Positions 1,066-39,879 of a stretch of DNA of 54,926 nucleotides are shown here, one piece after another (within the stretch, counting starts at the first letter, position 1; each line of letters opens with the position of its first letter). The notes beneath the pieces were generated by a model, which saw only the letters and a list, made by a program, of their open reading frames with translations, searched no databases and had not been told where the DNA came from. The stretch is from Girardia tigrina (Eukaryota). The stretch covers positions 1-54,926 of the forward strand of contig MQRK01231705.1 in NCBI GenBank assembly GCA_001938485.1. Reading direction: 5' to 3'. The position numbers and the translations under genes were made by a program.

Positions 1066-3036
1066 AATATTTTAAAAATTAACAAAAACTTTAAAATCTA
1101 GATGTTCCTCTTATAATACATATTTTTTATGATATGTAAAAAAATATTGTCTCCATTTTTTTACAGTAATTAAATTTTTTTGTAAATAAAATGCATAATT
1201 TTAAGAAAAATCTCGTTTTTTAATATCCCAATTTTAAAATATTTATATTTTATTTTAAGAAATATTTTAATCTAACACACTTAAACAACATAATAAAAAG
1301 TAGGGATAATAGATAAGCTTAGTAGTTATATTTTTTTACTGAACATAAAACCTATCTGTATTTTACTAATAATAATCTTTTTTTTAAATAATTATAGAAT
1401 AGGTAAAATTTGAATGTAATCTAATCAAATACGAGCTAGAGAGGGCGAATTTACTCTGACCCAGAATAGGATAATTTGTTTGAGACACAGACGACTAATA
1501 TATTGATATGATCTTGCTGCATCATTAGAACTGACTGAGCTCTAATTATGATACAGGTGAACATGAATGGATACCACAAGATACAAGAATCACTGGAACA
1601 GAAGAAGCAGGATAAATATTAATTAGATGTCTTAATAAGCCTCACACACTCTCAGATGCCAATTATATTTGATAAAAAGAAAATTAATTATTTATTTATC
1701 AGGTGAATGTTTAATGATGAAAAAGGTTGATGGTGGTGATTGTTTCATTTGCATTTTGAAAAAAAACATCATATTTTTACAACCGTAAAAAATTATTATT
1801 TTCTTTTTTTGTCTTTTTTTCTAATCTGCTTTATTAAAAAAATGAAAATTAAAAAAAATATTAAAATTGATTTCTGATTTTTGATTAATTTATTTCAATT
1901 ATTTAGATTTTTTTAATAAAAATTGTCGGATGTTAAAAGTAGATAAATGTATGATTGAAAATTATTTTTGAATTATATTTAATAGAAATTAGGAATTTTA
2001 GAATTATGAGGAGTAAATAAATTAATGAGGAAATTAAATAATTACGTAAAACATAAAAAACACATGAAGTTTATAATGCTACAATCCCATAATTTTCGAA
2101 ATAGTTAAACATGAAATATATTTTAGAAGAAAAAGCTTTTTTTATGTTACAAAAGTGACGAATTTATAATGAAATAGAGAATCTATTGCAGATAAGCAAC
2201 AAGATTTTTTGTCTTGAATATGATCATTTGAGACAAGATTCAACTGTAATGGAAAATAAGAGCGAGTGGATTTCTATCTTCCATTAACTAAATAAATTAA
2301 ATAACACAAAATAATCTGGAAAAATTTATTATTTAATTAGATCAACATAAGTTTATTTCAGGATGGTTGGCATTAGTGGTTTGAAATAAATAGATTGTTC
2401 TCTTTAGCTCCAAATCAGCAATAAGTACATTTCTGTACCAGTAAAAATGTATCAACTGATATCATCAACATGAGATTTGCTGAACAAATGTCGATTCCAT
2501 GTTTAGACTGCTACTAACCATTCAAGCAGTTTGGTGGAAATTCGTCGGCGACAGTGCCAAGTGTGACGAATTTCCAGTACCGACTAAACCAGAAAACCCG
2601 ATAAATGATTAGTGCTCCGGTTGGATGCGTCGCAGCTGTTATGGAAATCGATTTTTTTGTTTTCTACTTGCGACAAAATCCGCTGACATTGACTGGTACC
2701 GTATACCTACATACTAGTTTGGAACGGTAGGAATCTATTATTTCAACCTATGGTCGACGTATAGTGTTTGCATAACGGTACATATAATAACATACATAAA
2801 AATAACATTGCCGTACTATAAACAAAAATACTCCTTGTTACAGGAAATGAAAGACTGTTTAATTAAATCAAATTCTAGATAAAAGTTACACATAAAAATT
2901 CAAATTATCGGTATGACAGTTAAAAAAAATAATCATAATAAACCGTGTCTTATGATATTTGTGAGGTAGTCAATTGATGCATAGATGGACATGGCCCAAC
3001 TGCACGTTGTCACGGGATCTGACATGGAATTCTCTC

Positions 3037-3159
3037 TTTGAATTTGACAAATTCTGACAGATTGTGTCACGTTAAGCCAACCAATTTTATCCAATACGAC
3101 ACTAATGCGATCCGAATCTGAGGGTCTCCAACGTTGTATTTCGGATAAACAACACGTCG
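3037..3159 (-). pseudogene. MRPL23: N-terminal fragment resembling mitochondrial ribosomal protein L23
   Basis: Minus frame not in the ORF track: RRVVYPKYNVGDPQIRIALVSYWIKLVGLT*HNLSEFVKFK, matching the recalled metazoan mRpL23 N-terminus pattern R.V.YP.Y..G.PQ.R......W.KLV....P...V.F; one stop. Confidence 0.65.
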
Positions 3160-3160
3160 T

Positions 3161-3217
3161 TTTCAGCACATCGCCTTTACATTTCCTCGTGCAATGGAAA
3201 CAACTGATTTTATCCAT
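3161..3217 (-). pseudogene. Fragment resembling the start of the first LIM domain of actin-binding LIM protein (abLIM/UNC-115)
   Basis: MDKISCFHCTRKCKGDVLK inside ORF 2933..3256 fits the abLIM LIM1 start I.C..C...C.G[ED]VL[KR]; truncated before the H..CF half of the finger. Confidence 0.55.
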
Positions 3218-3318
3218 TAAAAAATTCGATTGGAAATGATTTCTGGCGATAGTCATTCTCTACTTGGATTGACTAAGACTTGGATTTAATTCCATTGATT
3301 TTTTTTTAAATCAATAAA

Positions 3319-3322
<4 letters not shown>

Positions 3323-3353
<31 letters not shown>
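3323..3353. repeat. (TA)n microsatellite
   Basis: Direct reading; further (TA)n tracts near 4116, 7159, 11418, 14122, 19258-19390, 35097 and 35472. Confidence 0.95.
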
Positions 3354-3357
<4 letters not shown>

Positions 3358-3362
3358 AAAAA

Positions 3363-3400
3363 GACGCGTTTCGAGATAATAAAAATCCCATCACCAGGTC
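3363..3400 (-). ncRNA. Degenerate minimal type I hammerhead ribozyme motif
   Basis: GAC CUGGUGA U GGGAU-UUUUAUU-AUCUC GAAA CGCGUC; A6>G in the core and the 3' strand of stem I is lost. Confidence 0.55.
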
Positions 3401-4036
3401 ACAAAATGTACCAAGCAGGTATACTATATGGAAACTTTCCGAAAATAGATTTTACCTTACAATGTATATATACTGACGTTAAAATCAATTATTTTTTGAA
3501 AAACTTTGGAAGAACGAAGGAATTCAAAACAAAATGTATTTTGTCGATGTGCGATTGTTTTGCATTGGTCAACTGTGTTATTATACTGAGTGTCACCAGT
3601 GTCAAACCTGGTACAGTTGAGAGAACACAACGTTCTCTCAGATTTCCATTTGGTCAGACATTTCAGTCAAATTGCATCGATGAGATTTCGGATTGTTTTA
3701 AGTTTAATGGGAAGGCTAAAATTGAGTTGATTGTAATGATTGTGAGAAGTTTCATCTCAAAGATTAGCTTTTGGTGTGCTGTTAGTTGTCATCTTTATCA
3801 TATGTCTCCGTTACCTTGTAAAGTATGGATTGATAGAGAAAACATATCGTTTTCTCAAATGGTAATTGATAGCTGCCAATGGTTGGTTTGCGAGAATGAG
3901 ATTGATTGCATTTAGTGCATTTTTCTTAATTTTAAGGAAAAGTGAAATAAAGTTATTTTCATCCAATAATTTATTGGATAAATTTTATTTATTTTCGGAA
4001 AGTTTCCATATAGTGTACCTGCTTGGTACATTTTGT

Positions 4037-4077
4037 GACCTGATGGTGGGATTTTTATTATCTCGAAACGCGTCGTC
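4037..4077 (+). ncRNA. Minimal type I hammerhead ribozyme motif (PLE-type, palindromic stem III)
   Basis: GAC CUGAUGG U GGGAU-UUUUAUU-AUCUC GAAA CGCGUC GUC; stem I GAC/GUC, ACGCGU palindrome, GUC cleavage triplet at 4072-4074; A9>G deviation. Confidence 0.7.
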
Positions 4078-5895
4078 TTGTTTTTATCCCTATTATATAG
4101 ATTTTACCTTACAATGTATATATATATATATATACATACATTTAATATATGTATATACCCAATATATGTATATATATATATATATATATACATATATACT
4201 AAAAAAATATATGCAATCACTACATCAACAATCTAAGGAAATTGTTGAGCGATTTCTTGAGTAAATATTTTAAATTCAGATTATCAACTTCCAAATAATA
4301 TAAGTAGTTCAAATATCTAGAAAATTTAGTTTTAATTTAATAGTAATTATTATTTTTTCAATGCTATCATTAAATAAAATCCTCTTGGTCTCGATCCGCC
4401 CGATCTCCGAGAACCGGACGGTGGTAGTAGCAGCGCGCAACGGAGATTAGAAAGGGAGTTCGAATTCATCGGTTTCCTGGGCCCATTTTGTTATGATTTT
4501 ATATTCACTCGATGAGATCATTTTATTGAGTATACAGATTTCAATTATTGTTAATCGAAATGTATTTTGACTTTGTTTTAACTCAAAAGAACGAAAATCA
4601 CAATAAGTAAAATATATTATTCAATTTCAAATTTTATTGAAAGAAACCTTTTTGTAAAGAAATCACTCGATTGCGATAATTTCGAAAATAAAATCGTCCA
4701 AAATTAGTTAAGATAAATTGCAAAATGTATACGCTCGTTTACAATTCTCTCAATCGAAATAATTCGTCAATAAATCGTTCAAAAATAGCTCAGTAAATCG
4801 TAATATTTCGATATCAGTGAAGGCAAATAAAAATATCAGTGATTGACATTAAAATTTTGTTCATTTGAATTGTCTTAAGGAGATTCTGGATGAAGGGTTC
4901 GAATTTAAATTGGAAGTATAAATAATGATAACACCACATACTAAAGTAATTTAAATTCCGAACAGTCTTTATATGCAAAGGAAAAGCCAAAAAAGAAGTT
5001 ATAGTCTTTTAAAAAGAAGTTATATTCTTTTATTTGGGTGGGCCTCTCAATTGAGAACTCCGGTAGTTTTTATTTTTTTAAGTAGTTTAATTTTAACTCG
5101 AAATTTTTAATATTTCATTACTGTATGTCATTTAAAAAATTAATTTAATTAATTAATATTTTTAATAGAAAATATTTATTATTTTTAATTTAAACCAAAT
5201 ATATTTTCATAAGTAAATGTAGTAATTATTAATATTTTTTATGTTTCTTTCAAATTAAGATGCTTAGTTTTGAAGGCACAATTTCTAATTCGGTTAATGA
5301 AAATTATAAATGTATTATTTAAAAAATATGAAAATATAAAATGTTTTTACTAAAAAATAAAGTATTTATTATGAAAAGTGATTTTTCTTAGAAAATAATA
5401 TTATTTCACCCAGTCAGGATATTAATTGCACATTAACATTCATACATGCTCAACTGGGGATATCACCCTCCAAAGGGAAAAAATTTCGCTGTCGGGTGAG
5501 TGATGATCATATGTTAAATACAAAGAAAAATTTTAAATAAATAAATAATATTCTTAGTTATAACTTGATAGGGATTGAAAACACGGCAAGGAGCACTAAT
5601 TCTAGAAGACAGAGAAAAAGTAGGATAAATGAAGAATTAAAGGAGATTTTAATTTTCAGTAAACAGATTAAAAATACTCTCCTCTACCAAACATAGTGGT
5701 CAAGAATATCAATAATTATAAAATTAATGTTAAATTCATATCCGTTTAAACAGTTGCGGTTCTTCCTCATTCAATCTGAAAGCGTACCCCTAAATTTGGA
5801 AATTAAAGATTGATAAATTTTCTTACGAACATTTATAATTAACAATGTTACAATAATTTTCAGAATTATGTATATATATTTTAAATAATTTTTAA

Positions 5896-6610
5896 CACTA
5901 TTCATACCGACACTTCACGTATACCTATTCCTACCGCGGCCTGTCAAATGACTGGTCTTTCACAACTTATATTTTTCAATATTGAATGCAGACCAATAGC
6001 CAGCTTACCAGTATAAAAATATATTTTCTTTTATTCAATAGTACATAAACTACATTTTATTCTTTTTCGTCGCGCTTTTTACAAATGGGTTTCTCAACTG
6101 TACATTTTCCGCATACGTATATTTTACATTTTATACAGATTTTATTCGCCATATTATCTTTACAATACCTTATCTGACATGTTTTCCGTTCACGGGAACC
6201 AGTACTTGTACTGGCGATGGGTATTGGTTGACTTTCTTTGCCTATCTCTTGTTGGTATTCGATTCCAAGTTCTTCTGACAATTGGAATAGAAATTCCTGT
6301 CTTGTAAATTCTCCTCCCGTAATTTCTTTATATAACACACATGCATTTATTCCAGCTAAATCCAAGATATTAAAAAAAATGCAAAGGTCATCTCCGTGAT
6401 TTAGATTTTACCGAATAATTTCTGGCCATTTGTTCAGTCACATCTACGCCAAATTTTGTTCTATAATACAGCTGAATTGTCTCCGATGTTCGGGTGTCAT
6501 TTTCTTCAACTTGTACGGAATTGCGCATTGAAATGAGAATCAGAACTTTCTTTTTTGGTTTGGCTTTGTAAACTGTCAACATATAATTATTTCAGCGATA
6601 GAGTTTGGTT
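5896..6610 (-). mobile_element. piggyBac transposon 3' remnant (transposase C-terminus and terminus)
   Basis: ORF 6388..6582 has YYRTKFGVDVTEQM (YNxTKxGVDxxDQ motif); ORF 6057..6365 has the Cys-rich domain CQIRYC...CIKCKIYVCGKC; TTAA at 5892-5895 precedes the terminus CACTATTCATACCG. Confidence 0.85.
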
Positions 6611-7029
6611 GACTGTTGCAAGACTCTACTGATTTGAATTCATGAAAAGACGTCTATATATTTCCTTCAGTTATAAGTTCATTTCTTTTCCGTCATAGTA
6701 GATAATATTGCGTGAGAAAATTCGAGGAAGTGGACCGTATCAGATCAATCAAGCAAATAAACACCTCTAACCCGATAGTCGAGCGAGAACTGCAAACACT
6801 TGGAAGTGCCGTAAACCATTTTCTGGAATGCACTTATAGGATAAAATCATGCCACAACTACATTTCCTTTCGTTTGTAACGAATTTGTAGTTTTGGCATT
6901 GAGTCTTAGAGAAAAACTTTACAAAAATGTATAATAAAAAATTTTTATTATTTTTTATTTAATTATTCAAGATATTTTTGGATAATAATGTAAATTTTAA
7001 AATTTAATAAAAATAAATTTAATTAAATA

Positions 7030-7157
7030 AAAATATTTAAAACAGCATTACGTTGTCCACTTTGAATGTTAATTAAAGGGTTGTGTTGTCGTATCAAAAA
7101 GGATTTACAGAACTGCCGCTCGTTATAAAGCTAATATAAAAAAGTAATATTAAAAAA

Positions 7158-7160
<3 letters not shown>
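7030..7160. repeat. Dispersed ~130-bp repeat, copy 1, ending in a (TA)n tract
   Basis: AATATTTAAAACAGC.TTACGTTGTC...CTGCCGCTCGTTATAAAGCTAATATAAA..GTAATATTAAAAAAG(TA)n; near-identical to 13996-14121. Confidence 0.85.
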
Positions 7161-7202
<42 letters not shown>

Positions 7203-8187: not shown

Positions 8188-8285
8188 GGTTGAGATTGCC
8201 GCTTGAACATTTATTTTAGGATTGTGGGTCCTGATTAATAAAGCTTCACACGCAACTTTCTCCCAATAATTTGCAAAATCTGAAC
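8188..8285 (-). mobile_element. Penelope-like element C-terminal fragment
   Basis: DFANYWEKVACEALLIRTHNPKINVQAAIST, homologous to HFDSYW*RMSCEALLIRSRCPKINVQSAVST near 16890-16982. Confidence 0.7.
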
Positions 8286-9247
8286 ACTGTTTATTCAAAA
8301 AGCGATTACACAACTTTAGTACATAATTTTTGCTGCCATATATATTGTTTTGATCATTTTAAGATAAAAATTGTAAATATAATTTAAAAATAAAGTTAAA
8401 AATAATTTAAAACAATAATTTAAACAATTAAGTTCAATTTTACAAATTATATTGAAATAAAAATTGAATAAATGGATTATAGCAAACAAATAACGAAAAA
8501 TTTGTTAATATACGTGTATTATTTTTATTAATAAGTTTTTGAGTTGAATATGAATTTTGATCTTGCTGATAATGAAATTTGTATAAACTTGACTAACATG
8601 GATGATGTATTTTCAATAAAATTACTACAAATTAGGTCTGTTGAATTTTATATGAGTTTTTTTTAGTTCTTTTGGAGCTTATTTATTTATTAATAATTGG
8701 CATTCATTAGCATTCCAAAATAGCAAATCTAATGGTAAACATATCAAAATTAATCAAATCCTAAATGCAATCGTTAAAATGAAATTAAAATCGAAAAAAA
8801 CCCGATGCGAAGAAAACAAATTAAAAAAAAGAAAAAAAGCAAAAATTTTAGCCAAGTCAACAAACATTTTTATGAAGAATACAAAAAATCAAATAGACAG
8901 AATATCATGACGAAAATTTTGCACTGCGAACAATATCACTTTTATTTGTGATTTATTTGTAAATAAATCTTCACTGTTGAAATTTGTCTTCTATTTTAAT
9001 ACCGAAACATTATTGTATCTAATATTATCTGATTCGTCCGGCAATCCACTTAGTGTTATTTTCCACAATTAGAAATTTTCTCGATCCTAAAACAGATGGA
9101 CCTTTACCGGTTTGTAATAAATCTTTCAGACAATTTAGGAAACCCCGATTTTAAAAGACCGACGCAGAAATCAACCGACCGGAACCAATACATACCCTCA
9201 AAAATTATATCCACGTGATAAAAATTATTTATAGAAATCAGTATATA

Positions 9248-10636
9248 CAGGGTGGGCCAAAAGTAGGGCTACAGTTAACACCTAAACATTTTATCTTTAT
9301 TAGAAATTTAGACATTTATTTACATACATTATATTTACATAATAAACATTTTGCATTGAACATTTAATCTCTCAAGTGCTCAAAATGTCCACCTTCAACC
9401 TTGCAACAATCTCTATATCTGTCCAAAACACTCTGACACACAGTACGACACAAATTCCGATCTCCATCAATTTCAGTGAATGCATCTGAAATGTAATCTT
9501 TCAATTCATTCACTGTGTGGGGTTCCTCTCATAAACCTTGTTCTTGACTACACCCCAAAAAAAGAAATTCATTGGTGTCATGTCAGGTGAACGTGGTGGC
9601 TATTCAATTCAGGCCCGCCTTCCAAACCAATGCTGCGGAAAGACTTGATGAAGATACTCTCTTACAGTCTTCGCATAATGTGGAGGTACTCCATCTTGCT
9701 GGAAGTACAGTTCATCAAAGTTAGCTTTGGTTCTGAGTTGTGGTACTACCACGTCACGTAGCATTTCCAAATAATTGTCTCCAGTAACAGTTCCATCAAA
9801 GAACACGGGCCCGATAACACCTTCACTGGANNNNNNNNNNNNNNNNNNNNNNNNNNNNNNNNNNNNNNNNNNNNNNNNNNNNNNNNNNNNNNNNNNNNNN
9901 NNNNNNNNNNNNNNNNNNNNNNNNNNNNNNNNNNNNNNNNNNNNNNNNNNNNNNNNNNNNNNNNNNNNNNNNNNNNNNNNNNNNNNNNNNNNNNNNNNNN
10001 NNNNNNNNNNNNNNNNNNNNNNNNNNNNNNNNNNNNNNNNNNNNNNNNNNNNNNNNNNNNNNNNNNNNNNNNNNNNNNNNNNNNNNNNNNNNNNNNNNNN
10101 NNNNNNNNNNNNNNNNNNNNNNNNNNNNNNNNNNNNNNNNNNNNNNNNNNNNNNNNNNNNNNNNNNNNNNNNNNNNNNNNNNNNNNNNNNNNNNNNNNNN
10201 NNNNNNNNNNNNNNNNNNNNNNNNNNNNNNNNNNNNNNNNNNNNNNNNNNNNNNNNNNNNNNNNNNNNNNNNNNNNNNNNNNNNNNNNNNNNNNNNNNNN
10301 NNNNNNNNNNNNNNNNNNNNNNNNNNNNNNNNNNNNNNNNNNNNNNNNNNNNNNNNNNNNNNNNNNNNNNNNNNNNNNNNNNNNNNNNNNNNNNNNNNNN
10401 NNNNNNNNNNNNNNNNNNNNNNNNNNNNNNNNNNNNNNNNNNNNNNNNNNNNNNNNNNNNNNNNNNNNNNNNNNNNNNNNNNNNNNNNNNNNNNNNNNNN
10501 NNNNNNNNNNNNNNNNNNNNNNNNNTGTAACATAGAATAAGAGTTCAGTAATATTTTCTATAATTTATATCTAAACGTGATTGTGAAGGCGAAACAGATA
10601 ATGAAGCAACTGTAACCCTACTTTTGGCCCACCCTG
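9248..10636 (-). mobile_element. Tc1/mariner DD41D (rosa-type) transposon, defective, interior in a gap
   Basis: TIRs CAGGGTGGGCCAAAAGTAGGG.TACAGTT at both ends, TA flanks; QQDGVPPH...PPRSPDMTPMNFFFWG with 41 residues between the 2nd D and the 3rd catalytic position (D>N here); two stops. Confidence 0.85.
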
Positions 10637-10995
10637 TATATTTGTATTTTGTTGTATGTTTAACTTCGATTAAAACATTGTGAGAGGTACTTGACTTGCC
10701 AAGCAGACTCTGAAGTTACATTTTGGTCTTAGATGTTTTAAAAATTTGATTTTGTTCCGCCCGACACTCAGGTTGCCCAGAGAATCGGACGGAGGTAACA
10801 GAGTTGCGCAGGAAACCTTTCTCGATGTGCTGGGTCCATTTTAATTGGATCCGACTAATGGGATTATTCATATTGGGATTCTCCAATCTCATAGAAATGG
10901 CAATTAATGATCCTTTGATATTGGCCAATCGATTGATCATTTAGTGAGGAAGCGCAAATGAAATATCGAAATCTTGACACAAAAATGTCTCGTAT

Positions 10996-11100
10996 TTGCA
11001 AGAGTAGCAGACACAGTTGTTCGAGGGCTGACTATTGCATTTCTTCAGCACTACCTCGAAGCCGATTTAATAACAAATAAGGCAACTCGACTTCCTCCAT
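10996..11100 (-). pseudogene. HECTD1: N-terminal fragment resembling E3 ubiquitin ligase HECTD1
   Basis: ATG-led MEEVELPYLLLNRLRGSAEEMQ*SALEQLCLLLLQ versus recalled HECTD1 start M.DVD...LL.WL..G...ERDMQLIALEQLCMLLL; TAG at the Leu position; truncated after 35 codons. Confidence 0.6.
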
Positions 11101-11414
11101 TAATATTTCTTGTTAATATCAATTTGTCGAAATCGAATTCTCCAAAAGAAAAAATAAGGCAAATGATTCGATTTTATTTTCAAATTTTCATCTTTAATCT
11201 CATTTAATCTAATAAAACAAATTCATCTTTTTCACATAATCCAATTAATTTCTTAATAAAAAAATTATTTTAATAAAAATAGTTTTTTTCCAATCTTTTC
11301 ACATAAAGCCACAAATTCATTTTTAAATAAAAACACAATAAGAATCACACAAAAAAAGTTTTGTTTTTCTAGTTTTTTAAATGCAAATGAGGAAAGCGCA
11401 GGATCCATTCAATA

Positions 11415-11450
<36 letters not shown>

Positions 11451-11656
11451 TAATTAATTTGTAATAACAATAAATAAAGATAGTTGAATCCCGAACAGAT
11501 TTCATTTTTGAATTAGCAAGTTCAATAGATGAAGTATAAAACAACAAAAGATGCGTTTTGCAAGGTTTTTAAGGAATATGATAGCCGATCAAATATTTAT
11601 ATTACTAGGCAGTAAAAATAAGTTTGTTCATAGTAATTTATGGTTTAGAAACATTA

Positions 11657-12957
11657 CAGAATGATTCATAAGTCTGTTCATCCCCCTTATTTTTTTGAGA
11701 AAAAGATCAAATTTTTAAAAAAAAAACATTTATTACGTAGAACTTTCAATACTTAGTTGAATGTCCTTTCATGTCCTTTATTATTTTTAATCGCCTAGGC
11801 ATGGATTCAACAAGACTTTTACAATAGTCTTTTGATAGTTCGTACCATATTTTTTGAACAGCCACCCACAGCTGTTCTGACGATGTGCACCTTATCGTCT
11901 GTAATTTCCTTCTTGAAAATCCCCATACATTTTCGATAGGATTTGCGTCTGGTGAATCGCCTGGCCATGGTAAAGGGTCGACTTCCTTCTTTTTAAAGAA
12001 ATTAAATGTCGACAGTACACGGTGTGGTGGTGCAAGATCTTGCTGATAAATAAATTGTTGTTTTGAAAATACCAAGCGCTTTCCAATAATATCAATGTCA
12101 TGTATTATAGTTTCTTGGTACATTTGAGCATTCATTGAACCTTCTACTTTTCTAAGAAGACCTACCCCGTTTGCCGAAAAGCACCCCCAGACATAAACTT
12201 TGGCTCCGTGGCTCTTGGTTTCATGAATGTTTCCGAGTTTGAGCCTTTCATTTCTAGTTCGTCTGATCCAACGTCTACCACGATGATTATTCATTCATCG
12301 CTAAATATAACAGAATACCAAGTTTCTTTATCCCAATTTTGATATAATGAAGCCCACTGCATTCTTCTTTGTTTCTGTTTAGCGGTAAGGAAAGGTTCCT
12401 TTACAGCTTAGAAAACCCTTATTCCATATTTCTGTAATATCTTTTCGACTGTCGACTTACTTATGGCTATTGAGGAAGAAGAATTAAATATCCTGGTAAT
12501 ATTTAACGTGGAAATATCATTGTTTAAACGACTTATGCGTTTAATCACTCTTTCTGATCTGGCGCTTAGTTTATGAGGTCTGCCTCCACGTGGCTGATCT
12601 TTCACTTCTCCTGTTTTTAAATACTTCACCCATATTTTTTTCATTCCGCGTTTTGAAATATTTATATTATATCTTGTAAATAATTCGACCTTTATTTGAT
12701 TCCATGTACTTCCTGAATTTTTAAGCGCAACAATCATTCCAAGCTCAAATTCACTAAATACTCTTAACATTTAATTTATCTAAAATTTAAAAAAATAAGT
12801 CATTAATGAAAATTGCAATATTTAACATATAAATTCAAATGTATAGCATAAAAAACTATTTATAAACAAATATTCAAAATTAATATGACGTCAAATTTTT
12901 AGTTAGAAAATAAATAATCAAAATATGAGGGGGTGAACAGACTTATGAATCATACTG
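11657..12957 (-). mobile_element. Full-length Tc1 (DD34E) transposon with disrupted transposase
   Basis: TIRs CAG.ATGATTCATAAGTCTGTTCA.CCCCCT, TA flanks; ORFs 12408..12770 (HTH, GRP) and 11746..12294 (VWGC, QQD..P.H, WP.DSPD.NPIEN; 34-residue spacing); stop at 12408 and frameshift near 12294. Confidence 0.92.
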
Positions 12958-13714
12958 TACAAATATCAATTTGACCTCTATGACTCAGACACATGAACGA
13001 TCGGTCGAATATCTTAATATCGCCGTTTTTCTGATATGAATAGGGATCATTTTGTTGAAAAATTGTTTTTCGTTAATAGGAAATCATTTAATTTCGATAA
13101 CTCAAATCGCATGAATCATAGAAAGTCTCAGCAACATAATTTTTAAGTAAAAAGTTATTTTGTATCTTTGATTAAAATTAAAAAGATTTAAGCATATTTT
13201 TAAAGTAAAGAAATAAGTTATTGTTGAAATCCATTATCAATAATCTTTTAAATAACATGAAAGAGTTGTGGAAAAAATATTTTATTGAAATGTGCCATTA
13301 TATTGAAAGCTCGAACTCTTGCAGCCAAAGCCGTGTGAGAGGATCAGAAAAGTTTATATTTTTCAAATGATTTCTACTCGATACAAAGTTTATGATTCAC
13401 TATCCTGTGTGTCAATGCTGAGTATTATTTGTAATACACAGTTATCCCTCACAGTACGGGGATGCTTATTTTAAATTGGAGAGACATATGGTCATCTCAA
13501 AATCCGGATTAGTGAGCATTAACAATCAAGTCGATCGAATAAGGTTCTTGATCATTGGTTACATTGAAAAAATATAATCTTTTATATTTGAAAGGATGAA
13601 TTTTCTGTTTTACAGAAGAGCTTTGAATCACACTATGAGATGCATTTCTGTAAATCATTAGTGTTGTGACCTACATGTACACTGTGCTTTGTTATTTTTT
13701 GTTTTTATTCATAC

Positions 13715-13784
13715 CAATTGTCTTTTTGGACCAGTACCATTTGATGCGCGAATTAATAATCCAACACCTCCAAATATTTGGCTC
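13715..13784 (-). other. Candidate isolated 70-nt exon
   Basis: ttatttag|GAGCC...CAATTG|gtatga; open frame SQIFGGVGLLIRASNGTGPKRQL with AT-biased third positions; parent gene not recognised. Confidence 0.3.
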
Positions 13785-13995
13785 CTAAATAACCAAAACA
13801 ATAAATAAAAATATGTTAAAACTAAAAATAAATACATAAATAATAATTATTTTTAGAATGTCTGGTCAATTTGAAATTTTTGAAAATTTAATTTTTTAAC
13901 ATCTAAAATATTTAAAGTCGAGAATCTAAGTAAATGCAGTGTACAAAATTTAAATCTAAGTTAAAATAAAAACAAGTGTTTGGATAAAAATTTTA

Positions 13996-14121: not shown

Positions 14122-14163
<42 letters not shown>

Positions 14164-17402: not shown

Positions 17403-18677
17403 TTATTTTGGTCGAAAAATAATAGCGGTTTTTGAGCTTCATACTTTGTTTATCTACTTTGATATGTATATAAGTTTAAATGCATTAGTGTTAGATATTA
17501 TTTGAAATCTTATGCTTAGCTGTATATTCCTATAGCCATTGCTGTTATTTTTTAGAATATTTACGGTGCTAAATTAATAATGGAAAAAATTAAAATTCGA
17601 GCAATTTTCTTGTACGAATTTAAACTGGGTCGTAAAGCAGCAGAAACGGCTCGCANNNNNNNNNNNNNNNNNNNNNNNNNNNNNNNNNNNNNNNNNNNNN
17701 NNNNNTGCAACGATGGTTCCGAAAATTTTCTGATGGAGATGAAAACCTTGAAGATGAAGAAGGTCGTGGTCGTCCAGTTGCTGTGAACAACGGCAATTTG
17801 AGGACAATGGTGGAAACAGATCACCGTACAACAATCAGAAAAAAATGCAGATGGGTTGGGCATTAGTCATTCAACAGTCCTGGATCATTTAAAACAATTT
17901 GAAAAAATCAAGAAACTTGATAAATGGGTTCCACATGATTTGAATGAAAATCAAAAGAACCGACGCTATGAAATTTATTCTGCCAATCATCTTCGCAATA
18001 AAAACGATCCATTTCTTGGTCGTATTGTTACCTGTGATGAGAAATGGATCCTCTATGATAACCGACGTCGATCTGCACAGTGGTTGGGCAAAGATGAAGT
18101 ACCGAAACACTTTCCAAAACCGAAACTAACACCCCGTAAGGTTATGGTGACAGTTTGGTGGTGTGATGCTGGAATCATCCACTATAGTTTCTTGAATCCA
18201 GGTGAAACAATCACCGAGGAGAGGTACTGTCATAAAATTGATGAAATGCATAAAAAAATGAAAACCCTTTGGGATTGGTCAATCGAAAAAGTCCCATCCT
18301 TCTTCATAGTAACACTAGACCTCATATTTCAAAAGTGACTCTTCAAAAGCTTAATGAGTTAGGCTATGAAACTCTGCTTCATCCACCATATTCACCAGAC
18401 CTCTCGCCAACGGACTTCTACTTTTTCAGGCATTTGTACAACTTCCTACGTGAAAAATTTTTCAAAAACCAAAATGATGCNNNNNNNNNNNNNNNNNNNN
18501 NNNNNNNNNNNNNNNNNNNNNNNNNNNNNNNNNNNNNNNNNNNNNNNNNNNNNNNNNNNNNNNNNAATGTATTGATGCCAACGGTTCATACTTTGATTAA
18601 TAAACTTTTGTTTCTGTGAATTTGCACGTCTTTGAAGTTTGTGTTCCAAAACCGCCATTATTTTTCGACCAACCTAA
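17403..18677 (+). mobile_element. mariner (DD34D) transposon, frameshifted
   Basis: TIRs TTGGTCGAAAAATAAT.GCGGTTTT, TA flanks; WVPHDL, TCDEKW, HPPYSPDLSPTD across ORFs 17580-18619; 2nd catalytic D reads S (LHSN). Confidence 0.92.
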
Positions 18678-19356: not shown

Positions 19357-19396
<40 letters not shown>

Positions 19397-19589
19397 AGGA
19401 AGAATATTAGTATTATTAAATTATTATTCAAAATTATAATCATTCAAATAAATATTAATTTATATAAAATTATTTAAATGTGGTTCAATTATTTCATCAT
19501 TAATTCTCGCATTTTTTATGTATTTGTTTTAATTAGTAAATATATTTTTGGGAAACGAATTTATTGTGCAATACTTATTAAAAACTAAC

Positions 19590-20578
19590 ATGGCGACCAC
19601 GTTCAGTTATTAGAAGAATCTGGTTCCCGATACATACAATGGAGAAGATAATCTTGAAGAATTCATGGAAGAATGCGGAAGATTTTTTTAAGTTTCCGGC
19701 ACCGACGCCAATATCAAAGGAATTATGGTGAAGGCTTTTATTTCAAAGGATTTAATTCCAATTTATGAGAAAGTGGATTCTAATATCGTGGAGTTTGATG
19801 AAAGGTTCAGGGCAGCATTTGCCAAACCTTCATCCTTATTCAAGATTTCATGAATTTATATTCATATGAAAAAGGATCAAATGGAGCAAATTTATATTTC
19901 GACAAAATTGGGAAAATGGTAAGAAAATTATTGTCCCATAAATGGGATGAAAAAGAATTGATGGCCTATTTCTTGGTACATTGTACGAGAAATGCCACGA
20001 TTAAACGAGAAGTGACTCTACGGGATGTCAACGACATGGATCAGATCAAAGATGTTATTCGAAAAATTGACAATGTCGAAAAGGAAGAATCAATGCATAT
20101 ATCAGCAATGAATTGTAAAGAAACTTATGCAAAAGTCATTCAAAAGCGTCAACAGTATTCAAATTCACAGATTGATAAATCATCAATGGAAAAGACAAAA
20201 TGGAGTCATCAAAACAAACCACAGCCGGGAAATTTAGTCATATGTTGGAGCTGTCAGAAGCAAGAGCATATCAGCAGGAATTGTCCAAACAAAAGCGTCC
20301 AGACCAAATGTCATGCATGTCAAGAACATGGGCATATTCGAAGAGAGTGCCCAAACATCAAATGCAGCCACTGTAAGAAAAATGGTCACGTTAGTTTTCA
20401 GTGCTGGCAAAAACGGGAAGAAAACTATATGAAGCAGAGATACTATCATGGAATGAAGGCTGACGGATCGAGGAAGAGCATTGCGGCATTGGATGAAAAT
20501 CGTAATGAAATCGAGGACTTTGATGACGAACACGAAGAAAGAGATCAGACCCCAAACTCTCAGGCTCCATCAAGGTGA
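19590..20578 (+). pseudogene. gag: gag with three CCHC zinc knuckles
   Basis: CWSCQKQEHISRNC, CHACQEHGHIRREC, CSHCKKNGHVSFQC; the upstream part MATTFSY*KNLVPDTYNGEDNLEEF has a stop and frameshifts. Confidence 0.85.
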
Positions 20579-23500
20579 GAAGTGATGGGAGCCATCTGTT
20601 AAAATGTAAGAAATTTTTGGAACCATTTATTTGTAATTTAACTAATTGTAATTGTAATAATAGTAATATTTTATTTGATAATTTTAATAGTAATATTTAT
20701 TTGAATGATAATTTTATTAATAATTTTTATTTGAATGAAAAAAGTAATAAGAATGATGATAATGTGAATAATTTTTTTCAAAAGAGAAACGAATTTTGTG
20801 AAAGGGAGCATAATAAAACATTTGTAAATGGGTTATGTAGATTGTTCGATAAGGGTATTAAGAATAAAATTAAAAAAGAATTATGTCATTACGACTCAAT
20901 AAAAACTAATTGCGAAAATGACCGATTATGTAATGTGTCTGGTTGTTGTATGTCAAATGTTAAAAGTTCAACAAATATAGGGGTATTGTGTAATAATAAA
21001 AAAAATAACTGCAGAATATTGTGTAATTTTAAAATAAAATATGACAAACTTGATGGACGACCCCGAATGATAGTTAAGTGTAATGATCTGTATTTTTCTT
21101 GTTTACTGAATACAGGCGCGCGAATAAATGTTATAGTAATAGAGGAAATTAATAGGTTAGGAATAATTCCGGAAAAATATAGTAATGAAAGTATTATTTG
21201 TGCAAATGGAAGTGCTTTAAGAATTGTCTCGTTTTAATTGTAAGAATTTTTTCGAATTGTCTTTCTAAAGATAGAAATAGGTGAAATTTATAAGATAATA
21301 AAATTTAATATTGCTGAAAAAGTATCACCATCTGTTATATGCGGTATGGAATTTTTAAATGCTTTTAAAATTCACATAAAAATAGAGAATGAACAATTAA
21401 ATAATAAAGGATTTAATTTTGATGATAGCAACTGTAGTAAAATATGCATTATCAGTGCTAAATTTGGATTGCAGATACCTCATAATATTAGGGTGAAAAA
21501 TATTCTTGATTTATTGAAAATAAAATTAGACTCTCCTTTATATGAAATAGTGAAGAAACATTTAGATGTATTTATGGCACATAAATGGGACGTGGGTTGT
21601 ATAAAACTTTTGAAACATAAAATTATAACAAAAGGCGATCCGATTTTAATGAAACCGAGAAGGCAACCAGCCAATTTAGAAGATAAAATTGAAGATCTGA
21701 TAAAGAATCTGGAGGATAATAAGATTATCAAACGATGCGATTCGCCCTGGAACACACCCATGGTTGAGTGTGGAAAAAAGACAAACAAGAAATACGACTA
21801 TGATTGGATTTTAGACAGTTAAATAAAGTAACAGAAAGACCAGCATACCCTATGCCTAACATTGAGGAAATATTGGATTCTCTTAACGGAGCTCGTGTTT
21901 TTAGCACAATCGATTTTGGAAATGCCTATTACCAAGTGGAGTTAGATGAAGATTCTAAACTGAAAACGGCGTTTTCTACAAAAAACGGTCAGTTCTGTTT
22001 TAATCGCATGCCATTCGGAATAGCTGCTGCCCAAGCAACTTTTCAAAGATTAATGAATATTGTTTTAGGGGATATGCTTTGGAAGGAAGCTTTGGTTTAT
22101 TTAGATGACATTCTTGTTTTATCAAAGACTCTAGACGAGCATATTTTTAAATTAAATAAATTGTTTGATAAAATTAAATGCGCAGGTCTTAAAATAAACC
22201 CAGAGAAATTTCATTTTTAAAACAGGAAACAAAATTTTTAGGTCACATGATTGACGAAAAAGGAGTTAGAACCGATCCAGACAAGTTAGAATCCATCAAA
22301 ACATTTGAAAGACCGAAATGTATTAAAAAATTAAGAAGTTTTCTGGGTCTTTGTAACTATTATCGGAAATTTATAAAAAACTATTCAAGTCTTGCAAGGA
22401 ATCTAGAAACTCTCTGTGGCAGCAACAAGGAAAAACTCTTTTGGAACGATGAATGTGAAAAATCATTTTGTCAACTGAAGGAAGCTCTAACGAAAACACC
22501 AGTGCAAGCATATCCTGATTTCAATAAGGATTTCATTTTAACTACAGATGCAAGTCACAATACGATTGGTGCAGTTTTATCGCAGTTAGATGACAAAGGG
22601 AATGAAAAAGTAATTGCCTATGGATCACATGCTATGAGTAAACATGAAATTGGATACTGCATAACAAGGAAGGAGTTGTTAGCAATTTATTTTTTCACAC
22701 AACACTTTAAGCACTATCTATATGGCAGACAGTTTACTTTAAGAACGGATCATAAAGCAATAACTTTCATACTGACAACGAAGAAACCTATAACATCCCA
22801 GTTTCAAACGTGGTTAAACTTTTTAAGTAGTTTAGATATGAAATTAGAGTATAGAAAGGGATTACATCATTCAAATGCAGATACATTATCAAGGAGAGAT
22901 TGTGATATGTGCTGTCAATGTCAAATGCAACACGATGAGTCTAAAAAAGGAAAACTGAAGACCAAAGTTTAAGCATCACTTTCTGAATCAGATGTTTTCA
23001 AATGGTAACATGATAACAAAGAGATTGAGGAGATTAAAAGACGGATAAATAATTATGAAATAGATGAATATACGTTAACCCAAGGAGTGGTAATGACACA
23101 TGATAGAAAAATATGGATTCGGCTAATAATAGATATCAATTTATTCAATATATTCATTCAATGTTGTGCCATGCTGGTATAGAAAAATTTTTCAATTACA
23201 TAAAAGACACTTATGCAATGGAAAATCGTAAAGAAAAGATCAAGGAAATAATAGAAACTTGTGAAGTATGTCAAAAAAGGAAAGTATTAGCAACAAGGAC
23301 AAAGGAAGTTATAATCAAACAGAAATGCGATTATCCATTCGAATCAATTTTTATAGATTTCTGTGGACCGTTAAAGGCCAATAAATATGGAAAAAAGTAT
23401 ATATTAGGTATAATTGACCAATTTAGCAGATATATTTCACTATCTGCAGATGCTAAACAAGATGAAGAGACTACATCTAGAACTATTTTGAACAATTGGA

Positions 23501-24100
23501 TATTGAAATTCGGTGCGCCAAGAATTATTCATGTTGTTCGTGGAAATACATTTGAATCAAAATTAATTAGAATCATGTGTGAAAAATTTCATATCAAATT
23601 AGAGTTTTCAAGTCCATACCACCATAATACAAATGGTATAATTGAAAGGCAATTTAGGACTATTCGGGATTATATCAACACGATAAGTAAGACAGATAAA
23701 AGTAGGAATTGGGTTGATTTACGTCCAGAAATTGAATTTTGTTTAAATGCTACTGTGCAAAAATCATTACAAATGAGTCCAGCAGAAATAATTTTCGGTT
23801 TTAAAATCAATAGAGAATGGAGTGATACAAATAGAGCTGGTAATAGAGAAGAACGGAAACAAACAGCTATCAAAAATCAAAATTTAATTACTTATCAAAA
23901 TTACAATCGTGAAAATAGGTTTTTCGAAATAGATGACAAAGTGTTAGTAAAAAGAGAAGGTCGTGGGAAAGATGAACACAGGTATGAAGGTCCTTATCGA
24001 GTCATTAAAAAAATCATGATCGCAGTTATGAATTGGAAAACGACATCGGTAAAAAAAATATACGCAATATAGAATGGTTAAGGTCTTTTATGAAAGGGGG
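20575..24100 (+). pseudogene. pol: pol (protease, RT, RNase H, integrase), fragmented
   Basis: LLNTGA (DTGA variant), MPFG, YLDD, TDAS, RKELLA, TDH, NADTLSR, H..LCH...C..C, IDF, IIERQFR, GPY in ORFs 20575-24072. Confidence 0.92.
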
Positions 24101-24176
24101 ATGTTAGGAAGAATATTAGTATTATTAAATTATTATTCAAAATTATAATCATTCAAATAAATATTAATTTATATAA

Positions 24177-24569
24177 GATTTATATAATATCAAATTAATT
24201 TTCAACAAATATCTAAACAATCTTCACTCTAACTTTCTACAAAATTTCAATTAAATGCTCAACAAAACTCCAATCAAATGGTCGACAAAATTCTACAGTA
24301 AAAGCATGACAAACCTCCAATCAAAAGCCCAACTAACCCCCCAAAAAAACAAAAACTAAAAATTGACCAATCAGAGCGATCCATTTCATTCACTGGTATC
24401 AGATGCACATATACTGACCACAATTACAATTTCAAGACACAATTACTCAGCCGACCTAATTATTGACTCCATGAGTCATAAATTGTGTAAAGTGAACAAT
24501 TTGAGTATTTTTAAATTAATTATATTAGATTATATATTCACAAACACACACCTATATATATATATAACA
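24177..24569 (-). mobile_element. Truncated LTR-like sequence of a second family replacing the end of the Gypsy 3' LTR
   Basis: Identity to the 5' LTR stops abruptly at about 24176; the segment ends in TAACA (TGTTA on the minus strand) and has the strand-skewed composition also seen in the 35140 LTR. Confidence 0.4.
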
Positions 24570-29045: not shown

Positions 29046-29108
29046 TTTTTTATTTAAATATTTTTATTTACACACCACATCAATCTCACCACAAATAACA
29101 CACATATG

Positions 29109-34420: not shown

Positions 34421-35092
34421 AGCTTCTTTATTTTTAGCTTTTCCTAAAAATGGTAATTTAAATAATCCTTTTATTTCATATTGTTTCCCGTTGACGGTTA
34501 TTGCAACTGGTTTCTTCATAACTTTCACAAAGATTATTTTCTAAGATTTTATTTTTTAAATTTTGACTTTGATAATTCCTTCAATAATTTTATTTAAAAA
34601 TTGTTTTATTTTTTAAATGATATCCTATAAAAGCATTTATTTAATTGATTTAAAAATTTATTAATTTATTTTTAATAGTTTAAATTTTTTGTAGTGTAAA
34701 GTATGAATCCTGCTCGAACAATTAATCATCACGAATATCCAAAGTACCAATTTTCCATCTGGGTGGGAGTAACACATTTCCTAATACTATACTCAACATA
34801 CAAAATACAACATATCAATTTCAACATACCACATTTAAAATATTCCTCTCACAGACGAACATATTTCTTCTCATTAACTGAGAAAAAAAGAACAATTTCG
34901 TTCTAGTTAACCTAATATTTTTTATGGAAATATTTCCTTAATAATATTCATTGGGTTCGTGATTAAAATACAAAGTCATAATTTGCAAACTTTATTTCTA
35001 ATACAACTTTCATTACTCAAACAAATTTATGAGAAACAATATTTCAGTTACATAAACCACATTTTGAAATTCTAAATAAAAATAATAATATC

Positions 35093-35139
<47 letters not shown>

Positions 35140-35142
<3 letters not shown>

Positions 35143-35468
35143 AAGGATGTGTGAATTATTATTATTATGGTTGCTAATTATTATTGAGATTATTATTATA
35201 AACATATTATTATCATTATTAGATGTATGTGGAAAGTATGCAAGATTATGAATTATGAGATTGAGTAACAGTTGATTGAGAGTTAGATGATATAATGTAT
35301 GCATGTAATAGTGTGCGGTGTCAATCATGTAGTGCTAACCCAGCAGATCTCCCTATTCCAATTATGCCACCGGATCGAGGTGTGCTTGTATATAAGATAT
35401 GTAAATTGAATGATTAGTTTAGTCTTGTGTTATTAATATATTTTAGAAAATCATCTTATCTCTTAACA
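35140..35468 (+). mobile_element. Solo LTR inside a (TA)n microsatellite
   Basis: TGTAAG...CTTAACA inverted termini (TG..CA), (TA)n on both sides, no internal coding sequence. Confidence 0.7.
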
Positions 35469-35521
<53 letters not shown>

Positions 35522-36844
35522 TTATNNNNNNNNNNNNNNNNNNNNNNNNNNNNNNNNNNNNNNNNNNNNNNNNNNATATATATATATATATATATTATTT
35601 TATTCAAATCATATTTTTTTTTTATTAATTTCTACAATGTATTAATTTGGAATATAAATTTAGATCTTAAAATTATTTTAATGGACATGTCCTGTAAAAA
35701 TTCAATTCCAAATAATTTTTCTTTGATTTTAAAATTCAATTATAAATAATTTTTAATGAGAATTTCCGCTGACAATTAAATCCAATAAAACATTATGATT
35801 TTTATTTTAGAACTTGATTTTAAAATGTTCAATAAATTATTTTTTTAATAAAACTTTCCATTGACAATTAATTTCAATAAACATTATGATTTTTGTTTTA
35901 AAAAGTTTTACAAGATGTATCAAAATTTTCTTTACAATATTTTTTTACTTTGAAACTGTTATTTTAATTGTGATTTTTTAAACCTTATTTTTTATAAAAA
36001 AATCTTCCAATTTAATTAATATAATATTATCATTAAACTATACTTTTTATAAAACTTATTTCACTTTAATTAGTAAAAATATTATCTATAAATTTAAATT
36101 TTTTATATATAATTTCTGTCAAAAGTTCTTTCAATTTAATTTGTAAAATATTATTTTTTAATTTATCTCAAATATAATTATGATTTTTAATCTAAAAATA
36201 TCAAAAATTTACAGTTCACCAAAAAGAACCCCTAACAATATTAATATTTTATTAATTTTAAATATTTACAAATGTTAAATTTAATTTTAAAATAATTTAA
36301 AAATATTTTTAATGAAATAGAAATTTTAATTATATTGAAAAAATAAAGATATATCTATTAAAATGAAATTTTTACTTGTAAATAATTTTTAAAATATTTA
36401 ATTAATTTTTATTTAAGGTAACAATATATTCTTATTAACCTTTCATTTTTTAATTAATTTCAATAATAATTGTCATTTTATGAAAAAAAATCTATTTTAA
36501 TTTATTTCAACATTTTTTTTATTTAAATAGTATTTCACAATTTTTTCAGCTATTCAATTTTAATCCGAATTGTGATAGAATAAAAACAGATGTAAATGTT
36601 GAAATTCCTTTCGCTCGTTCGTTGAAACAAAATTGAAGTAACTTTATATTTTACTCAATTCTCTTTTTAGTGTTTTAATCTATAATTAAGAGAATTTTTG
36701 TACTAATTATTTCTCATCTAATTAGAATTTAAATTTTAATCATTAATTAAGAAAGAATTAACTAAATAATTACACTGTTCCGAATCACTGAAGCAGCAGT
36801 TATAGTTCGAGAAATCTTAAAAATTATAATAAAATAATAAAATA

Positions 36845-37705
36845 TTAGGTCGTCAAGTATTAAATTTGTAGAACCGAATTCAAAATTTATTGATAATTTA
36901 CCAATACAAATATTTATGTCATTCATCAATGTATGCATCCATATTATCGATACACTTTTGACATTTGAGCGGCCGCTTGTTTAGGTCATTAAAAATGGGT
37001 GGGCGAGAATCTATAAATTTCTGGGAGGTCATTTTTACGAATCTTCGGAATAGTTTTTTTCTTATCAAAAAGTTGTTCAAATTGAGAAAGAAATAGTAGT
37101 CAGTTGGGGCTAGGCCTGGTGAGTATGGAGGATGATACAGAAGTTCCAAATCAAGGTCTTAAGTGTAGTATGTGGTTTTGATTTGAGTAGACTTATTTAC
37201 CAAATGTGACAGATTTTCTTTGTGTTTCCGCATCATACATTCCAATTGCTTTGTAACAACAAACGTTATAGATAAATTATGAGCACTTTGTGATGGTTCC
37301 AACCCCACGTTTCGTTATTATCAACCTGAGTTCCTGGGCGACCCCGAGACTTATTATTGAGGTTAAAATTACCTTTCACGAATTTTTTGAACAAATTTGA
37401 TACTGTCTGCTGAGTAGTAGCATGCTATCGGAATACTTGATTGATATTTTGCATGGTTTCTGATACTGAGGTTCCACGCAGAAACTCGTACTTCATAATA
37501 ATTCGAATTTCTGCATTTTCCATTTTTCAAAATACTGATTATTTAAACCAGTTATCAATAATTTTAATAATATTTTATTGATTTGTTCAATAGCCATGAA
37601 AATGTAGCAATTAAACTTAAGTAACAAAATGCTAAGTCGTTTTCAAATTACAGCTATTTGAATTTAATGTAGTAATGCCTAAAAATGTCATACTTGACAA
37701 TCTAA
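36845..37705 (-). mobile_element. Internally deleted mariner
   Basis: TIRs TTAG.T.GTCAAGTAT with TA flanks; HPPYSPGLAPTDY in ORF 36919..37149; MENAEIRIIMKYEFLRG N-terminus near 37520. Confidence 0.85.
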
Positions 37706-39187
37706 TAATTATATGCTCACTATATTACAAGGGTATTGGGTATTTTGAACGGTAAGATTATGCGACCAGCATGTTCACTGGTCTCTTTCTTTGTAGTCTC
37801 ATCTTTCCGTTATTGATAATTCATGTTTGGAAATGATAATAATTCTGGTACACTTGATTTCTTTTCATTGAATAAATCCATATAATGTTATTAAAAAAAT
37901 AAACTTAAAAATTATGTTTCTCGATCATAATTTTATATATAAAATCATAAATGATTTCAACTCATTAAAACACTTAAAATTAAAAAATATTCCTCACACT
38001 TATCCTTTAAGTACAGATCATTTTAGAGTCTATATTATCAAAGATATTTTCTTCCTGCTTTCTTTCTTATGGTTACCGAAAAATATAATTTTTATATCTA
38101 AATTTAGACTAATGAAATTTTATTTGAGTCTAAACAAAAGTGATTTAACAGTATTTTTATTGAAAGAACCCTTTCGGTGTTTCCATGTGTTGGATGGTCT
38201 GGTGGAGAAGACAGTGTCGGTTACGATCCGCGAAGAATATCGCTCTGAAAGTTAGAAAGGAAGTCCAAGAAAGCCAAAATGTATCATTGATTCAAAAATT
38301 TTGGAGCTTCAGCTGTTAATTATGGACAATAAACGTAATTCATTTTGTCTTAGTAAACAGTATGGCTTTCGAAGGTGATGGCTGTTATCTCCATATTGAG
38401 GCCGAAAAGAAGTTATATGAGATATCATTAGTTGGTCGTGTCAGTGGATCCAATTCGGATGACATGGAGAATATTCCAAACCAATTGTGTTACAGTGTTT
38501 TCCATCGTACAAAAAATTGAGAAACGATCAAAAAAATATATGAAAAATTTTATATTTGTAGTAACTGGTGTTTTCTTATTTTAAGTAACTGAATTTTGGT
38601 CGTAATATGTTATTTGTCATTTCTAATATTTCATCAGTCTTGTAAATTTGAATGTTTTTTATGATCATTTTCGTCTGAAATGTGTCTAAATGGTGTGAAT
38701 CTCAAAGTGTTGATGGATTTGGTTGTTTCAACTAATGTATATACTTTATTCATATTAAAGAAAAAATAATAACAAAAAAATGGACGCCAAAATGGCAAAA
38801 ATAATTATTTTATCCAAGAATATTTCTCGATTTGTTTGCTCAATCTGTTTTTTCAGTTACTGTTGGAATCACGAGTGATCGATTTTATTATTAAGGAAAG
38901 ACTGATTGTCTGAAAAAACATTATTAATTTATGATCGATTTGTTTAAATCGAATATTGAAATAAATTCGGCGCAATTTCTTTTGAATAGTGCGAGTTTTG
39001 TTCTCGAAATTGTTTAGTTGATATTTTCGAATAAAATTGTTTTCTATCGGGCATTTGAGTTTTACTTTCATTCATATCCTTCAAAAGATATCAGATTTGT
39101 TTTAATAATCTTCCGGCAAAGTTTTAATTTCGAAATTTATATTAAATCTGAGTTCTCTTCAATTTTCTTCTCGGATATATTGAAAGC

Positions 39188-39645
39188 ATGACATCTGCAC
39201 CAAAAATACAAAAAACAGAAAGGATTGGCAAAGTTTACCAAGATCAAGTTTTGAATTCCCTAATAGAAAAGATCGATGAGGTCCAAAGTGATATCCATAA
39301 ACTCAACGAACAAGGAGCGAAGAAATTATCAAAGTTGAAAAGACATTTAATAAAAGCCGACGATCGCTATTTCAGAAACGGGTGAATCTAATCAAAACGA
39401 TCCCGGATTTCTGGATCAATGTGTTGAGTAATCATCCTCAACTGATGTCACGTATCGCTGAACACGTGGAAGATCCACTTCAGTCTCTTACCAGTCTCGA
39501 GGTCGAAGAATTCGACGATATTAAATCTGGTTTCAAAATTATCTCAACGTTTTCTTTGAATGATTATTTCTCGAACTCAACTATAACGAAATCGATTCAC
39601 GTCGTAGAGTCGGAGTGTTCAATGCCGGAGTTCATGCGTTATTTT
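39188..39645 (+). pseudogene. SET: 3'-truncated SET/TAF-I (NAP-family histone chaperone) pseudogene
   Basis: IEKIDEVQSDIHKLNEQ then, after a 1-nt loss at 39314-39318, EEIIKVEKTFNKSRRSLFQKRVNLIKTIPDFWINVLSNHPQL...LEVEEFDDIKSGFKI..F..N.YF.N..I.K; the acidic C-terminus is absent. Confidence 0.85.
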
Positions 39646-39879
39646 GGTGAGATACTGTTGCATATTTTCCTACGACCCGCTAACCCCCAATCTTCGCCAT
39701 TTCGCGACTGCCACATCAAGCCCGCTCTTGTACCAACACCACGAATCAGTCAAAGGAGGGTTTCCATTTCCAATATTTTATAATTAGATATTACATATTT
39801 CATAATTGAAATTACAGTTCTTTATAATCTTTGTAAATTCACATTCACATTTATATTTAAAATTCAAAAATCAGTATTT

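Follow-up and report, generated by a model that had tools for sequence, protein, structure and literature searches.

Spliced 5′ parts of host mRNAs inside long terminal repeats of Girardia tigrina, probably acquired by reverse-transcriptase template switching

Introduction

The capture of host mRNA by long terminal repeat (LTR) retrotransposons has been described in several forms, and these provide the closest comparison for a 54,926-nt stretch of DNA from Girardia tigrina (contig MQRK01231705.1, positions 1 to 54,926; hereafter the window), in which LTRs contain the 5′ ends of host genes. The window is repeat-rich, has 29% GC and comes from an animal; it was compared with a host assembly of 1.43 Gb (G000). 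The pieces are 5′ parts of spliced host mRNAs lying inside LTRs of BEL/Pao-type and Gypsy-primed elements, and a template switch of reverse transcriptase probably placed them there.

The feature is real, and the closest known system is LTR-mediated retroposition, of which it is a variant. In the accessible text on that system, capture occurs by template switching, and a copy of any part of an mRNA replaces the internal open reading frames (ORFs) between intact LTRs (Tan et al., 2016; PMC5131818). In both systems, parts of mRNAs were copied without introns and became attached to LTR elements, and multi-gene chimeras and secondary amplification occur; microsimilarity at the joints is described in that text and is clear at one joint here, and a Pao element is among the carriers in that text. 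Unlike there, the copy in G. tigrina forms part of the LTR, begins close to the 5′ end of the mRNA, is serially overwritten, and occurs in autonomous-type elements, where it can lead the gag frame. A second related case is formed by BARE-2 and the Veju terminal-repeat retrotransposons in miniature (TRIMs), for which the consulted part of a plant review describes abnormal template switching between co-packaged RNAs, with foreign sequence in the LTR of BARE-2 (PMC13317346). There, as is proposed here, foreign sequence was gained by an RNA switch; the donors, in isolated cases, are a second retrotransposon or DNA of unknown source, whereas here many host genes were used recurrently. Pack-TIRs and Pack-MULEs likewise amplify short host pieces; according to the sections consulted, Pack-TIRs are DNA transposons with terminal inverted repeats (TIRs), and intronless copies of multi-exon parents were excluded from that study (PMC8277862), in contrast to the LTR carriers and intron loss seen here. 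The accessible text of one further paper (PMC3118150) holds no structural detail of use for comparison. In a literature search of incomplete coverage, made without supplements, no report of serial mRNA 5′-end capture within LTRs was found. Other elements also have an ORF starting in the LTR, as the gag of Ty1, or cellular RNA sequence within it, as the 5S RNA of Cassandra TRIMs. Those are fixed features, while here the slot is refilled from many mRNAs.

LTR Carriers of the Host Pieces

An earlier sequence-only reading of the window had recognized four host-like fragments, each the N-terminal part of its protein (LIM/abLIM, MRPL23-like, HECTD1-like and SET), and had attributed them to recurrent capture of gene 5′ ends that are strung together. 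The fragments exist as such, and transposable elements have indeed taken up gene 5′ ends recurrently. They are located as follows (PBS, primer binding site; PPT, polypurine tract).

2245..4224, minus strand: LTR A, solo, TRIM-like, with a primer site that is presumably of Gypsy type; TGT..ACA ends and identical 5-bp flanks, full-length copies, PBS and PPT in relatives
3161..3270, minus strand: LIM/abLIM-like 5′ end; parent G000:C217779, intron absent
3037..3160, minus strand: MRPL23-like remnant without own start; weak uL23m matches, lower boundary taken from the sequence-only reading
10753..11497, minus strand: LTR B, solo, BEL/Pao; identical 5-bp flanks; PBS, PPT, paired LTRs and domains in relatives
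10857..11153, minus strand: 5′ end of a HECTD1/TRIP12-type E3, which we take to be HECTD1; parent G000:C230983, TPR_TRIP12_N E-value 2e-4
38188..39738, plus strand: element C, solo LTR-like, probably BEL-type; TGTTGG..CCAACA ends, flanks differing at 1 of 5 positions, both ends common to relatives
39182..39615, plus strand: SET/NAP 5′ end; parent G000:C137651, PF00956, spliced protein P0001

Searches of G000 with the fragments returned near-full-length dispersed copies, with 788 first-look candidates for A, 1811 for B and 229 for C, counts that are inflated by identical duplicated contigs (e.g., C113900/C113901 and C128410-C128412). All scored candidates matched (40/40 for each of the three). 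Flank alignment of the copies gave sharp TGT..ACA ends and 5-bp duplications; the fragments in A, B and C lie inside multi-copy solo LTRs with TGT…ACA ends and a 5-bp target site duplication (TSD). A blind scan of the window for TGT..ACA ends with TSDs yielded many chance pairs and was used only alongside these copy alignments.

For family B, the TSD is exact in 10 of the 20 solo LTRs (shuffle mean 0.5, maximum 4); nine LTRs have a PBS after them and 14 a PPT before them. Paired LTRs and matching TSDs are seen in complete elements (5.15 and 5.30 kb), and the B elements encode ubiquitin, a DUF1759 gag (PF03564, E-value 2e-9) and a Peptidase_A17 pol (PF05380, E-value 5e-22). Family B thereby shows paired TG..CA LTRs, PBS, PPT, 5-bp TSD, DUF1759 and Peptidase_A17, as expected of BEL/Pao. 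In L111, L114 and other B elements, Gag opens with a ubiquitin domain without its own Met, and the in-frame stretch ahead of ubiquitin resembles a retained small intron. In L087, L090, L216 and L217, another primer site comes after B-like LTR ends; in the first two, the next frame resembles the start of an envelope protein.

For family A, a census gave 19 LTRs with both ends, 16 of which have an exact 5-bp TSD; a looser census gave false internal 5′ ends in about half its rows and was excluded. The units are organized as LTR-PBS-interior-PPT-LTR with non-coding interiors of 164 and 161 nt, which together with the 5-bp TSD is the layout of a TRIM. TRIM LTRs measure a few hundred bases, while loaded family A LTRs reach 1.08-1.41 kb; family A works like a TRIM but is larger. 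In one locus (L095, G000:C59810) a frame that we take to be TBP-like follows the family A primer site, and internal capture may also occur.

Other carriers were considered as well. The TGT..ACA ends suggested a TIR/Ginger-like element, which was dropped when PBS, PPT and paired LTRs were found. Membership of the Pack-TIRs or Pack-MULEs was rejected on inverted ends of only about 7 nt and on the loss of introns from the cargo. Helitrons have 5′ TC and 3′ CTRR ends and make no TSD; they were rejected on the TGT..ACA ends and the 5-bp TSD. The sequence-only reading had proposed a Pack-type system and suggested a check for TIRs or Helitron ends. Instead of a single such element, two or more groups of retrotransposons contributed the LTRs that act as carriers.

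Two further LTRs in the window belong to this set.

4390..4964, minus strand: LTR E, degenerate, B-related, 3′ end eroded and approximate; ends resemble B, relatives of both ends
4486..4799, minus strand: piece in E; candidate donor G000:C230179, 82% over 314 nt
54194..54926, minus strand: LTR D, with the same presumed Gypsy-type primer site as A; relatives, runs off the window

The piece in E comprises about 12 codons and the 270 nt that precede their ATG, in frame with the common LTR tail. G000:C230179 is the only long match to E among 22 scored; it is an unnamed locus and a candidate gene only. LTR D measures about 840 nt in relatives, and no source was identified for its middle.

RNA Origin of the Pieces

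The pieces are intronless partial mRNA copies of the type described for LTR-mediated retroposition. The SET piece begins 6 nt ahead of the ATG, reaches into exon 3 and lacks both introns (50 and 241 nt), which are absent, as far as covered, in all 11 loci retrieved, three of which are identical assemblies. In the abLIM-like piece, 52-60 nt of 5′ untranslated region and the ATG of exon 1 are joined to exon 2, which encodes a LIM domain in the parent, and the piece ends after about 19 codons; the 4415-nt GT..AG intron that follows the ATG in the parent is missing from the window copy. Pieces of Snapin and of a SET paralogue occur at other loci of G000. The 1630-nt Snapin intron is missing in 12 of 14 loci tested, the remaining two matching exon 2 only, and the SET-paralogue intron in three of five, the remaining two not covering it. 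Since introns are lost from SET (two), abLIM (4.4 kb), Snapin and the SET paralogue, these pieces passed through RNA.

This bears on the model of the sequence-only reading, in which a TIR or Helitron element gathers promoter-proximal genomic DNA, and which had itself set pieces spanning splice junctions like cDNA against a DNA-level mechanism. Such pieces are present in all four genes. Multi-copy cassettes, TSDs and 5′ bias would agree with that model, as would the 270 nt of unspliced upstream sequence in E. Against it stand the four genes with lost introns, as well as PBS, PPT, paired LTRs and gag-pol, with terminal inverted matches of about 7 nt, and it is now very improbable. The reading had also asked whether intronic or upstream genomic DNA is included: no intron is carried, and alignments end at most 270 nt upstream of the parent ATG.

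The HECTD1-like piece is real but extends over 10857-11153 by alignment to its parent, longer than the 10996-11100 first proposed. It derives from one parent exon and consists of 53 nt upstream plus 114 parent codons, minus two in-frame blocks of 54 nt (GC..AG) and 45 nt (GT..AG); the parent frame is open through both blocks, and Pfam aligns across them. A motif-pattern search did not find this parent. Of the MRPL23 label, the presence of the fragment stands and the name has weak support. In a two-row profile search against PDB, nine of the ten sequences at E-value ≤10 were uL23m (residues 2-43, E-values 0.2-0.8), and single-sequence homologue and atlas searches gave no match. No parent was located: a sequence pattern found only two LTR copies and one unrelated locus in G000, and the PF00276 profile found RPL23A only. 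Parent searches by PF16182 and among VHP contigs also found none.

The pieces are enclosed by the two ends of the LTR, ahead of the PBS, and do not replace internal ORFs. Within each family the LTR ends are fixed, and the middle is exchanged among host 5′ ends in the sense strand; every identified piece is in LTR sense. Family A LTRs keep their first bases and their tail and vary in the stretch from 35-45 nt past a (TA)n tract, with abLIM, MRPL23-like, SLC6 (PF00209) and two unnamed types as middles. Family B LTRs have the first ~140 and last ~92 nt in common, and their middles are HECTD1-like, DRC7-like or one of several unnamed types. Newer pieces overwrite older ones in a nested manner. Sister LTRs of A hold an MRPL23-like piece with its own start codon, whose place abLIM took in the window LTR, and the beginning of SET was displaced by Snapin, with joints at two separate positions. 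Most pieces start shortly before the parent ATG (SET 6-29 nt, Snapin 7-22, abLIM 52-60, HECTD1 53-59, E 270); one further Snapin lineage aligns only from +25. A possible non-5′ capture outside an LTR is a presumably PP1-like internal fragment upstream of short tandem BEL-type LTRs (L310, G000:C226383).

Mechanism of Capture

The acquisition of these pieces is best explained by template switching, which we consider probable. By analogy with how LTR retrotransposons are known to be reverse transcribed, synthesis of the minus strand, primed at the PBS, would copy U5, after which reverse transcriptase would switch from this strong-stop stage onto a co-packaged mRNA and run to its 5′ end. A jump back to the 3′ end of the element RNA would then yield U3, the host 5′ end and U5, with the piece beginning at the LTR start site. 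Run-off at the mRNA 5′ end would give 5′-complete, 3′-cut pieces and would explain the 5′ bias. Being part of the LTR, a new piece would be duplicated at each transposition and left behind as solo LTRs.

The main rival is read-in, or 5′ transduction, in which a host promoter transcribes a resident element, host exons enter the LTR by splicing or deletion, and the chimera is reverse transcribed. It likewise predicts spliced, sense-oriented 5′ pieces. The possible cryptic donor at the abLIM joint favors it, as do the splice-site ends of the two blocks missing from the HECTD1-like piece, which suggest a precursor RNA spliced at cryptic sites. The joints, however, lie mid-exon, and no GT donor is present at either SET 3′ joint, the HECTD1 joint or the E joint. 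Moreover, one of the Snapin-SET joints has 12 nt in common, and many unlinked genes were taken up serially by the same LTR tail. Read-in is accordingly regarded as unlikely, though it deserves more weight than any other alternative.

Another possibility is that reverse transcripts of mRNA 5′ ends recombine with integrated LTRs in the nucleus. Such cDNA-mediated conversion would produce intronless pieces with microhomology, and the two LTRs of L114 differ by a block in the middle. It leaves unexplained the single slot just past (TA)n and the starts near the mRNA 5′ end, and is considered improbable.

Several points weigh against template switching as set out above. The sampled loci come from best-hit and exact-pattern searches and are non-random. 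Element C is tied to BEL through relatives alone: no PBS was found after its exact LTR end in a search that gave a single matching locus, and the BEL-type PBS is that of SET-bearing relatives (L043, L044 and L046). Apart from the 12-nt joint, microhomology is weak at two others. A start of the pieces at the host cap is presumed from their short 5′ extents. Some pieces start mid-gene, namely SET behind Snapin and the SET paralogue in L059, L061 and L062, which is compatible with overwriting without proving it. Finally, cryptic splicing could account for the abLIM/MRPL23 joint, because the parent sequence goes on with GT and an AG is present there in one MRPL23-type LTR.

Reading Frame into Gag

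The ATG taken up by BEL LTRs shares its frame with an ORF that continues across the PBS into ubiquitin-Gag; in L111, an open frame of 321 aa runs from the LTR through the PBS into ubiquitin. The HECTD1-like ATG keeps the Gag frame across one joint and two deletions, and this is also the frame in which the DRC7-like and E pieces are joined. Among 20 HECTD1-type LTRs, the in-frame length is kept in 13 and the frame is fully open in seven; it is broken in the window copy. The SET frame crosses the PBS in L043, L044 and L046. There is no need to assume a splice from the PBS leader into ubiquitin-Gag, the frame being open without splicing. Judged from these frames, BEL-family elements likely owe the start of their own protein to the host pieces, and captures that keep the frame were likely favored.

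Family A, which is non-coding, carries pieces that do not keep the frame and run into stop codons. This contrast with BEL suggests selection for frame, on few independent events. The out-of-frame pieces of family A also count against the overall explanation, and B elements have a further in-frame Met downstream of the PBS, so that the LTR ATG may be dispensable.

Implications

Taken together, it is conceivable, if somewhat doubtful, that LTR transcripts in this lineage open with a slot that can be refilled, in which strong-stop DNA is routinely finished on host mRNAs and two superfamilies keep swapping leader, start codon and Gag N-terminus under frame selection. If so, the elements could pass for housekeeping mRNAs during translation or in silencing, and solo LTRs would have spread host gene starts by the thousand. 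The proposed mechanism offers a concrete route to retrocopies with a polarity opposite to those made by long interspersed nuclear elements, and host sequence is seen to have become a heritable part of the LTR. One capture amplified hundreds of times can confuse gene annotation, and small RNAs from the LTR repeats could match housekeeping genes. Successive switches would be recorded in the nested LTR variants, so that genome data allow a test of first-strand transfer onto RNA other than that of the element.

Other Features of the Window

The sequence-only reading had taken several CpG-rich stretches for promoter or 5′ untranslated DNA in a CpG-poor background and had listed further GC-richer patches. 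CpG is undepleted in the window, with an observed/expected ratio of 1.04 overall and a median of 0.96 across 457 windows of 330 nt. The three flagged stretches (about 4530-4860, 11100-11200 and 38780-39187) have ratios of 2.56, 2.59 and 1.9; ratios of at least 2.5 and at least 1.7 occur in 1.5% and 12.7% of the 330-nt windows, respectively. Some patches do fall in the LTRs, namely 2335-2780 in A, 4530-4860 in E, 38160-38530 in C and 54410-54720 in D. Others lie outside these LTRs: 13290-13790 overlaps a repeat matched by eight fetched loci, and 6620-6900, upstream of ORF 6057-6407, reads as transposase-like. The latter region had no match in a Pfam search; we take it to resemble piggyBac. The patch at 9000-9200 is part of an old dispersed repeat (8700-9232) with a conserved short reading frame, found at 29 other places with 70-86% identity, in which no LTR ends were seen.

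No tRNA genes were found in the window. A decayed Gypsy-type element on the plus strand (19393-24210) has a zinc knuckle, RT-like frames and an integrase; its LTR begins in (TA)n, and no host piece was recognized in it. Copies of Tc1/mariner type are present at 9243-10641, 11690-12959, 17560-18670 and 52067-53940. The (TA)n tract of LTR A carries a nested insertion.

3355..4116, ends approximate, no strand assigned: insertion in (TA)n of LTR A, with inverted arms, absent in sister copies

Its 101-nt inverted arms lie at 3350-3450 and 3987-4087, and it is presumably Penelope-like. The (TA)n tracts at 3322-3354, 11418-11452 and 35097-35517 are part of LTRs near their 5′ end and attract other insertions, and many assembly gaps fall in such tracts.

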